DNA of 64,000 nucleotides from the NCBI RefSeq assembly GCF_030384885.1, contig NZ_CP128613.1, one strand, 5' to 3'. The stretch's first letter is position 1; each line of letters opens with the position of its first letter. Under the pieces are notes generated by a model. It did not search any database. It was given only the letters and a program-made list of their open reading frames with translations, and was not told the DNA's origin. This DNA comes from Escherichia coli. Its GTDB lineage: Bacteria > Pseudomonadota > Gammaproteobacteria > Enterobacterales > Enterobacteriaceae. Below, in pieces: positions 16,401 through 18,854 of this stretch. A program made the position numbers and the translations under genes.

Positions 16401-16871
16401 TTACTCGATGACGACCAGCGGCTCGTCAAATTCTACCGGTTGTCCACTTTCGACCAGAATTGCTTTCACGGTACCGGATTTGTCCGCTTCGATCTGGTTC
16501 ATCATTTTCATGGCTTCAACGATGCACAGGGTATCGCCCACGTTGACTTTCTGACCCACTTCGATGAACGCTTTTGCGTCCGGGCTTGGGGTGCGGTAGA
16601 AAGTACCAACCATCGGGGAACGTACGATGTGACCACTGATTTCCGCTGCTGCTGGCGCTTCCATGGAAGGAACGGTCGCCGGAGCGGCTGCGTTAGATTG
16701 AGCTGGCTGCTGCATCATTGGTGCAGCGTAAGCTTGTTGCATCACAGGGAAACTTGCGGCAGGAGCTGCACGGCTGATGCGTACTGACTCTTCGCCTTCG
16801 GAGATTTCCAGTTCGGAGATGCCTGATTCTTCAACCAGCTCGATCAGTTTTTTAATCTTACGAATATCCAT
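16401..16871 (-). CDS. accB: biotin carboxyl carrier protein
   Basis: 156 aa; Ala/Pro-rich linker and biotinylation motif [10 protein letters not shown]. Confidence 0.95.
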
Positions 16872-17879
16872 GAGTGGGTTCCGTACTCTTTGTTTAGTGT
16901 GATTGTGACAGGCGTTTCACCGCCGTCTGTAAAGCGTATGCCCCGACAGCTGTATGCATAGCGATAAATTCCAGCAGGCCGGGACGCCGGTCTATTTTGC
17001 CCCAGAGTGTCAATGTTAGACTTGACGGACATTGTGCAGCGATCTGCTGCTATCCTCCGGCAAAAAACAAAATATACCTTCGTTGCGCCAATGTCACCTT
17101 TTCCGCAGCGCAAAAACTGCGTCAGGGAGGACGAGGTCGCACATTATAACGATTTCGTAGCAATTGGCAGCTAAATACTGGTCTTATCAGGGAAGATAAT
17201 CAACAGCTAACATGTAAATAACCTTCAACACCGTGTAATTTGCAACAAGCCGCACAATTCACGAAATTAGCGCTATCGTCGACGGAACTTCTTATAACGT
17301 AAGGCTAAAAGCTGTAAAGCCAGCCCTGCGAAGATGAGGGGCTGCAATGAGATAATCTTCACAGACCACAAATAATGTAGGGATGTCAGGATCGCGGCAA
17401 GATAGACGACATTACGCAGCGGTTGCTGGTGATTACTCAATTTTCACTGCATCGTCTGGATAAACGTCAATGCTAAAGCACGCAAAATCAACAAACTGAC
17501 AATGCTCAGCATCAAATAGCTTTGAGTGGTTAATTTATAATCAAATAAAATCAGATTATTCACCCCTGGGATCCGAGTTAAGGTACAGATTAAGCGTAGC
17601 GTCACCCAGGCAAAGCGCCTTAAACCTAACAGACGACGGGACGTATCAATAATGACTATTTAGTGGAGTATCAAGGGGGTTTTCCACCGTTTGGTGACCC
17701 GTATCAATGCGCATCAATTTATGGTCAGTCGAAATCATGACTTTCCAGTTTGGATGATGTTGTACAACTTCATGACCAAGATGTTCGACGAAAGCTGTCC
17801 GGCTAACCGCTTTTCCCGTTAACCGATTGAATAATGATTTCAAAATGAGTTCCCTCTCTTATTATTCCCTGCTAAATGG

Positions 17880-18854
17880 TTAGTTAACCTTCACCAGCGT
17901 GCGACCCTGGATCTGGTTATTAATGATGGCCTCGGCAAATTTCGGTGCCTCTGCCAGAGATATCTCTTTTGCCGCCTGGGTATAGAATGATTCCGGTAAA
18001 TCGGCGACCAGTCGCTGCCAGGCTTGTGCGCGGCGTGCTGGTGGCGTCATCACTGAATCCACCCCCTGTAAACGGACATTACGCAGAATAAATGGCATGA
18101 CCGTGGTTGGCAGAGTAAAACCACCCGCCAGACCACAGGCCGCCACGCAGCCGCCGTAATTCATTTGCGCCAGCACTTTCGCCAGCACTTTGTCGCCAAC
18201 GGTGTCAATTGCCCCAGCCCAGAGTTGTTTTTCCAGAGGACGGGATTCGGCAAACTCATCGCGAGGGAGAATACGGCTGGCACCTAAACTTTTCAGATAT
18301 TCATGGGTACTTTCGCGACCGGAAACGGCAACGACCTGATAACCCAACTTATGCAGCAGCGCCACGGCGGTACTGCCGACGCCACCACTGGCACCCGTTA
18401 CGACAATCTCGCCGTCCTGCGGGCGAACACCGGCATCTTCCAGCGCCATCACACACAGCATGGCGGTAAAACCGGCAGTACCGATAATCATTGCTTTACG
18501 CGCGTCCAGCCCTTGCGGCATGGCAACCAGCCAGTCACCTTTCACTCGCGCCTGCTCCGCCAGCCCACCCCAGTGGTTTTCACCAACGCCCCAGCCAGTG
18601 AGTAATACGTCCTGACCGGCATGAAAACGCGGATCTTCGCTGGTGCGTACAGTTCCGGCAAAATCGATCCCAGGAATCATCGGAAAATTACGGATGATTT
18701 TTCCCTTACCGGTAATTGCCAGCGCATCTTTGTAGTTCAGGCTCGACCAGTGAACATCAACCGTGACATCGCCCTCCGGCAGGCGACTTTCGTCCAGAGT
18801 CTGTACCGATGCGAGAGTTTTGCCGTCCTGCTGTTCTAAAAGTAACGCCTGCAT
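17880..18854 (-). CDS. acuI: acrylyl-CoA reductase / MDR-family NADPH oxidoreductase
   Basis: 324 aa zinc-independent quinone-oxidoreductase-like protein (YhdH); Rossmann motif GASGGVGS. Confidence 0.88.
   Translation of the reverse strand: MQALLLEQQDGKTLASVQTLDESRLPEGDVTVDVHWSSLNYKDALAITGKGKIIRNFPMIPGIDFAGTVRTSEDPRFHAGQDVLLTGWGVGENHWGGLAEQARVKGDWLVAMPQGLDARKAMIIGTAGFTAMLCVMALEDAGVRPQDGEIVVTGASGGVGSTAVALLHKLGYQVVAVSGRESTHEYLKSLGASRILPRDEFAESRPLEKQLWAGAIDTVGDKVLAKVLAQMNYGGCVAACGLAGGFTLPTTVMPFILRNVRLQGVDSVMTPPARRAQAWQRLVADLPESFYTQAAKEISLAEAPKFAEAIINNQIQGRTLVKVN

Follow-up and report, generated by a model that had tools for sequence, protein, structure and literature searches.

A 65-codon open reading frame between acuI and accB of Escherichia coli is very probably a 5′ fragment of yrdF truncated by deletion

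A 65-codon open reading frame (ORF) downstream of acuI in E. coli (contig NZ_CP128613.1, of which a stretch of 64,000 nucleotides, here termed the window, was analysed) is very probably a pseudogene fragment, the 5′ end of the 276-codon gene yrdF, which was truncated by a deletion. As yrdF is already known as an annotated pseudogene of E. coli K-12, the ORF is not a new small protein. In the initial annotation the ORF was considered either a genuine small protein or a chance ORF, and neither view was right as put. The ORF is real coding sequence, but it is the 5′ end of a truncated gene. The product had not been placed in a family; the first 58 codons are the 5′ end of yrdF, a probable divergent relative of the DUF1444 family.

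The ORF and its start signals

The ORF was recovered with exactly the coordinates and sequence first given for it (17646..17843, minus strand, 65 aa). On the minus strand, acuI (17880..18854) is followed by a gap of 1008 bp (16872..17879), accB (16401..16871) and accC, and csrD lies on the plus strand beyond acuI. The sizes first estimated for the gap (roughly 1 kb) and for the distance from the acuI stop to the ORF (about 36 bp, in fact 36 nt) were accurate, as was the description of the product as His-rich (7 of 65 residues). The acuI-accB gap is 100% identical to that of E. coli strain 2013C-4282, where PGAP names the ORF a hypothetical protein (WP_000838298.1). That the gap holds no other assigned gene was correct for the PGAP annotation of this twin genome but not for K-12, in which the pseudogenes yrdF and yrdE occupy it. 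The features of the region are as follows.

17844..17879, minus strand: leader of 36 nt from the acuI stop to the ORF start, containing GAGGG at 17852..17856
17646..17843, minus strand: 65-codon ORF, TTG start at 17841..17843 and TGA stop at 17646..17648; very probably a rare pseudogene-fragment allele of yrdF
17670..17843, minus strand: codons 1-58 of the ORF, which derive from yrdF and are homologous to the start of the intact gene (276 codons)
17668..17700, minus strand: 33-bp segment that the window allele has and K-12-type alleles lack, flanked by TTGATAC direct repeats
17668..17675, minus strand: deletion junction CTTGAT/AC, joining yrdF codon 58/59 to the msrQ remnant near MsrQ residue 66
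17646..17661, minus strand: ORF tail, the last ~16 nt and the stop, msrQ-derived and out of frame
17276..17667, minus strand: yrdE, what is left of the 3′ part of the positional msrQ after decay, spanning MsrQ residues ~66-193 and interrupted in frame by a stop at 17444..17446

The ORF begins with TTG instead of ATG. Inspection for a ribosome-binding site, which had been proposed as a check, located the GAGGG Shine-Dalgarno-like motif 8 nt before the TTG. The leader has 0 mismatches in 36 positions between the window and K-12, and the block GAGAGGGAACTCATT-TTG is kept in E. albertii and in a metagenomic relative of 78% identity (L008). Since no terminator was predicted between acuI and the ORF, the two are likely to be co-transcribed, and the ORF would then be reached by read-through from acuI. 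The YrdF relatives of 62% identity use an ATG start located one codon further upstream; this codon is ATT in E. coli, whose start is therefore a weak one. Codons 2-35 alone gave pS 0.53 and pN 0.09, evidence that the true start lies at or beside the TTG and not at the internal ATG of codon 36. In strain KSC64 (L022) an A-to-G change lies between the Shine-Dalgarno motif and the TTG, together with K2T; this was the sole sampled allele altered in the core of the 36-nt leader.

Homology to the 5′ end of an intact gene

The length of the ORF was uninformative on its own, as 83% of 2000 sequences simulated for the 1008-bp gap with a first-order Markov model contained an ORF of at least 65 aa. Comparison of complete genomes explained the ORF. 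Among 5,426 complete E. coli genomes, a minority carried about 720 bp of additional sequence in the acuI-accB gap. In these strains (AHB6, O111:H- 110512, SMS-3-5, O145:H28, O26 and others) a coding sequence of 831 nt starts at the identical base, 36 nt after acuI, and is annotated as “hypothetical” or as “DUF1444 domain-containing protein”. With gap coordinates counted from the acuI stop toward accB, positions 1-210 of the window gap were 97% identical in DNA to positions 1-210 of AHB6, and positions 314-1008 matched AHB6 1038-1732, so that a block of 827 bp in AHB6 corresponds to 103 bp in the window. The intact E. coli YrdF proteins (WP_000838295.1 and WP_000202360.1) and their E. albertii counterpart share with the window the genomic position, the translation signals and residues 1-58 (at the 97% DNA identity given above); residues 59-276, and with them most of the fold, are lacking in the window. 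In a protein alignment with relatives of 62-78% identity the yrdF-derived N-terminus was conserved.

In E. coli K-12 MG1655 the locus is annotated as the pseudogene yrdF (b4697) followed by the pseudogene yrdE (b4646), and both are called pseudogenes in a table footnote in J. Bacteriol. (PMC7648144). K-12 yrdF starts at the homologous base (window position 17843 is K-12 position 3404495), and the K-12 locus has the same leader, the same first 48 codons except for a few substitutions (4 mismatches in 136 aligned positions) and the same msrQ remnant downstream. It differs in having lost 33 bp (11 codons) that the window has kept, which makes 54 codons instead of 65.

These comparisons leave next to no room for a chance ORF in a non-coding spacer without coding ancestry. 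The simulated ORF lengths and the lack of any Pfam or NCBIfam match for the 65-aa peptide would suit such an origin. It was nevertheless rejected because the ORF is 97% identical in DNA to the 5′ end of an 831-nt coding sequence found at the same locus in 667 genomes, because the N-terminus is kept in relatives of 62-78% identity, and because pN lies far below pS in these comparisons. With the 5′ end of a conserved gene of 276 codons as their homologue, the first 58 codons did not arise by chance.

The deletion junction and the msrQ remnant

Homology to yrdF stops at gap position 210, and the junction motif CTTGAT/AC found there may be a microhomology shared with msrQ. Nucleotides 205-585 of K-12 msrQ aligned with gap positions 219-598 (74.7% identity, E = 7e-66). 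Since msrQ aligns through the DNA of the ORF tail, these last ~16 nt, with the TGA, are msrQ sequence read in the wrong frame: this DNA encodes KQPLLIR in the MsrQ frame and ...NSHY* in that of the ORF. Two database variants (P0020 and P0026) read the tail DNA in the MsrQ frame. Alignment of the window with BH100N and K-12 showed that loss of the 33-bp segment results in the 54-codon ORF.

Downstream of the ORF, two hydrophobic ORFs on the minus strand (17444..17605 and 17273..17440, 53 and 55 aa) share one frame and are separated by a single stop. Judged by sequence similarity, both belong to the rest of the msrQ remnant yrdE. A tblastn search aligned the remnant with MsrQ residues 76-193 (61% identity, E = 7e-33), and it matched the NCBIfam MsrQ model with E = 1.3e-15. 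An intact MsrQ/YedZ of the Ferric_reduct type was not present, as the score was 57.5 bits against a cut-off of 130, the match covered only model positions 106-195 and an internal stop was found; yrdE also has pseudogene calls from PGAP. MsrQ (YedZ), the heme-binding subunit of the MsrPQ methionine sulfoxide reductase, is thus the source of the ORF tail and of ~390 bp downstream, and its gene sits between acuI and accB in Citrobacter and near accB in Salmonella. Unlike these genes, the window remnant has lost residues 1-65, carries a stop and frameshifts and is in the wrong frame inside the ORF, and the functional msrPQ of E. coli lies elsewhere, beside hiuH. The remnant ends in ...RYKKFRRR*, as does the positional MsrQ of 199 aa and unlike the extant E. 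coli MsrQ of 211 aa at the hiuH locus.

The N-terminus of YrdF, LKSLFNRL (17820-17843, minus strand), resembles the tail LRSLFNRL of the 211-aa E. coli MsrQ (K-12 msrQ codons 194-201, L010) in 7 of 8 residues and 16 of 24 nucleotides. This likeness is probably a coincidence, since relatives that do not adjoin msrQ also carry ...LNRLTGK.

The intact YrdF protein

Intact YrdF is, as far as can be judged from its sequence and a predicted structure, a cytoplasmic alpha/beta protein and a distant relative of DUF1444 (YtpQ/CgoN). The 276-aa protein matched Pfam DUF1444 (PF07285) below threshold (17.1 bits against a cut-off of 23.8, E = 0.004) and NCBIfam PRK13668 with 23 bits against a cut-off of 221. 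The match was collinear and spanned positions 15-254 of the 264 in the DUF1444 profile. A word-indexed search detected only 11 relatives, from E. coli, E. albertii and a few metagenomic sequences, and a species-level genome scan detected the gene in E. albertii only. A full profile search yielded 1,277 representatives at E <= 1e-3, mostly collinear and of about 280 aa, including 510 at E <= 1e-10. Of the relatives at about 30% identity, 46 out of 52 matched DUF1444 (best E = 6e-20). Full-length collinear similarity to DUF1444 was thus found by transitive homology for the intact protein; the 65-aa product had no match in Pfam or NCBIfam, DUF1444 included.

The AF2 model of intact YrdF had a pLDDT of 90.2 and a pTM of 0.77, and no convincing neighbour was found for it among solved structures. 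In this model residues 1-58 comprise only a helix (15-29) and three short strands (34-37, 43-47 and 52-56) forming a meander, so the 65-aa product would be a small part of a 276-residue fold.

YtpQ (CgoN), the one characterised DUF1444 member, is an FAD-dependent, oxygen-independent coproporphyrinogen III oxidase, an activity known only for YtpQ of P. megaterium (PMC10965808). YrdF resembles CgoN of Bacillaceae in its end-to-end profile alignment and in size (~270-280 aa); it differs in scoring below the family cut-offs. By analogy, an activity of the porphyrinogen-oxidase type may serve as a lead for YrdF.

The relatives of 62% identity (L006 3898-4731 and L007 698-1531) lie among genes of mobile-element type (KfrA_N, an Aca2/YdiL-like regulator and a ResIII fragment), which hints that the yrdF family travels on plasmids or islands. 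No copies of yrdF were found in PLSDB or in phage records.

Alleles in the population

The 5,426 complete E. coli genomes contained the K-12-type junction, with its 54 codons, in 4,747 cases, the intact 827-bp block of the 276-codon gene in 667 and the 65-codon form of the window in 5. PGAP calls the 65-codon ORF a hypothetical protein and leaves the 54-codon ORF uncalled. Variants in protein databases (54-112 aa) share a common N-terminus that is followed by unrelated C-terminal tails, and ORF lengths of 54, 55, 61, 65, 69, 77-112 and 276 codons were observed. The conservation of the reading frame in close relatives, which had been put forward as the test of a genuine protein, was therefore partial: the start signals are kept, as are the first 48-58 codons, but the end of the ORF and its tail vary. 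Conserved boundaries, as in a small protein, were found at the start and not at the stop.

In the DNA of yrdE, the common and the intact classes are intermixed at about 3% divergence, and the window class forms a deep haplotype about 8% from both. The simplest reading is that the 54-codon allele derived from the 65-codon allele by slippage between the repeats. The alternative is an independent deletion, and descent from the 65-codon allele is not the sole option because the downstream haplotype of the window is diverged by about 8%.

E. coli contains both intact (12%) and deleted (87.5%) yrdF alleles, with intermixed flanks, and the strains concerned include HS, ATCC 8739, SMS-3-5, O26, O111 and O145. 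Given this intermixing of flanking haplotypes, the yrdF indel behaves as a cassette moved by recombination. On a more speculative reading, the two states may persist as a long-lived polymorphism because the DUF1444-type protein, remotely related to an FAD-dependent porphyrinogen oxidase and formerly a neighbour of heme-binding MsrQ, is useful only in some niches.

Some deposited sequences were irregular. In E. coli HS-02 (L021, NZ_CP172818, 1262-2805) the acuI-accB gap measures 1544 bp, the yrdF pieces are split by homopolymer-rich stretches and a 141-aa “hypothetical protein” with many K, P and F runs is present; this reflects either an error of sequencing or assembly or an allele that decayed independently. 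A product of 205 aa from a Logan assembly (P0011), in which full-length AccB is fused to a YrdF′ fragment, is likely to be a misassembly. A frameshifted YrdF variant of 198 aa (P0005) is named “initiation of DNA replication” at its source, a label for which no basis was found.

Selection on intact and truncated alleles

Among intact alleles pN/pS was about 0.17 (60 synonymous and 37 nonsynonymous polymorphisms), which indicates purifying selection. Between AHB6 and the relative of 78% identity, codons 2-58 gave pS 0.51 and pN 0.04. In codons 2-48 of 14 truncated alleles, 10 polymorphisms were nonsynonymous and 5 synonymous (pN/pS 0.55; intact alleles, 0.17-0.27). This points toward relaxed constraint on the truncated alleles, in a contrast that is underpowered (Fisher p = 0.05 with the whole intact gene and p = 0.66 with the same codons). 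The ORF was open in all 14 truncated alleles sampled, and their start region was perfectly conserved.

The shared 48 codons differ between the window and K-12 at 4 of 136 positions (~3%), compared with 42 of 392 (10.7%) in yrdE and a pS of 0.03-0.08 in the flanking genes. For the ORF this pair gave pN 0.018 and pS 0.097, from pairwise counts too small to weigh. The low divergence of the shared codons could reflect residual constraint and, equally, recombination with intact alleles; the latter is plausible because the first 179 nt of the window are identical to those of a common-type strain. Weak residual constraint on the fragment, or its expression, may thus exist.

We considered whether the N-terminal YrdF peptide of 54-65 aa is still translated and has been exapted as a small protein, kept for a function of its own, and regard this as improbable; the same holds for the example of such a role, binding a former partner of YrdF. 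The conserved Shine-Dalgarno motif, leader and start, the frame that stayed open in 14 of 14 truncated alleles, a divergence below that of the neighbouring yrdE, the pN and pS of the pair formed by the window and K-12, and the PGAP call of the 65-codon form as a coding sequence are all compatible with it. However, the end of the ORF varies through many tails and lengths, nonsynonymous polymorphisms outnumber synonymous ones in the truncated alleles by 10 to 5, and the fragment makes up little of the complete fold. The 54-codon form is not called by PGAP and is a pseudogene to the K-12 curators, and translation would begin at a weak codon, either TTG or the ATT preceding it. Recombination with the constrained intact alleles can also explain the low divergence, the flanks of the common and intact classes being intermixed. 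If the peptide were functional, yrdF′ would be a small protein born from a decaying gene.

We give hardly any credence to a role at the RNA level, as an element of the acuI 3′ UTR or a small RNA in which the ORF is incidental. Such a role would suit the good conservation of the leader and first 180 nt and the lack of a terminator between acuI and the region. Against this, no Rfam family matched inside the ORF, and the substitutions between species are mostly synonymous, as expected of a protein-coding sequence and not of a structured RNA. A truncated 5′ end of yrdF remains by far the best account of the ORF.

The region upstream of accB

The ~400 bp upstream of accB (16872-17275, minus strand) show a single difference from K-12 in 404 positions; for comparison, synonymous sites in the flanking genes differ by 3-8% and the yrdE remnant by 10.7%. 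Such low divergence would be expected if the promoter and long leader of accB are under strong constraint. At 17170-17143 (minus strand), upstream of accB, a promoter-like site was observed, and a sub-threshold Rfam match to Ysr190 at 17069-17168 (minus strand, 25 bits against 66).

Proposed history of the locus

Gene order at the locus is csrD-acuI-msrP-msrQ-accB-accC in Citrobacter and csrD-msrP-msrQ-aroQ-accB in Salmonella. In E. albertii, csrD and acuI are followed after 36 nt by yrdF with a TTG start (271 aa), an msrQ remnant and accB, and the metagenomic relative of 78% identity, a contig of just 2 kb, has acuI-yrdF-msrP. The intact E. coli allele carries a decayed 5′ fragment of msrP directly after yrdF (LTEADFATKSAFLLSR, aligned with residues 7-22 of Citrobacter MsrP; 71% DNA identity to the metagenomic relative over 118 bp), and its msrQ is joined at about residue 97. 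The window-type and K-12-type alleles have msrQ from about residue 66 and lack the msrP fragment. The differing msrQ breakpoints and the msrP fragment suggest that the deletions of the intact and the truncated classes were independent.

The ancestral order in the Escherichia lineage would have been acuI-yrdF-msrP-msrQ-accB. According to the alignments, the lineage of the window underwent a single deletion at the short microhomology TTGAT(AC), from yrdF codon 58/59 to about msrQ codon 66, by which the last three-quarters of yrdF, the whole of msrP and the first third of msrQ were lost. Past the junction, the yrdF frame runs for a few codons into msrQ DNA in the wrong frame and meets a TGA, giving 65 codons. 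In most E. coli a further 33 bp between the TTGATAC repeats would have been lost, giving 54 codons. The leader, Shine-Dalgarno motif and TTG presumably persist as they adjoin acuI and came under relaxed constraint only in recent times. Read-through from acuI probably keeps the fragment transcribed, and weak translation may occur, presumably of a product with no function of its own.

Significance

The ORF calls for caution, as it looks convincing in several respects (a good ribosome-binding site, tight spacing from acuI, a hydrophilic product and a PGAP call) and is nonetheless very probably the relic of a deletion, whose stop codon sits in the DNA of another gene. The positional msrPQ of other enterobacteria has been lost at this locus in E. 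coli. The locus would also represent a well-resolved case of stepwise gene decay at short repeats, in which states of 276, 65 and 54 codons coexist within E. coli.
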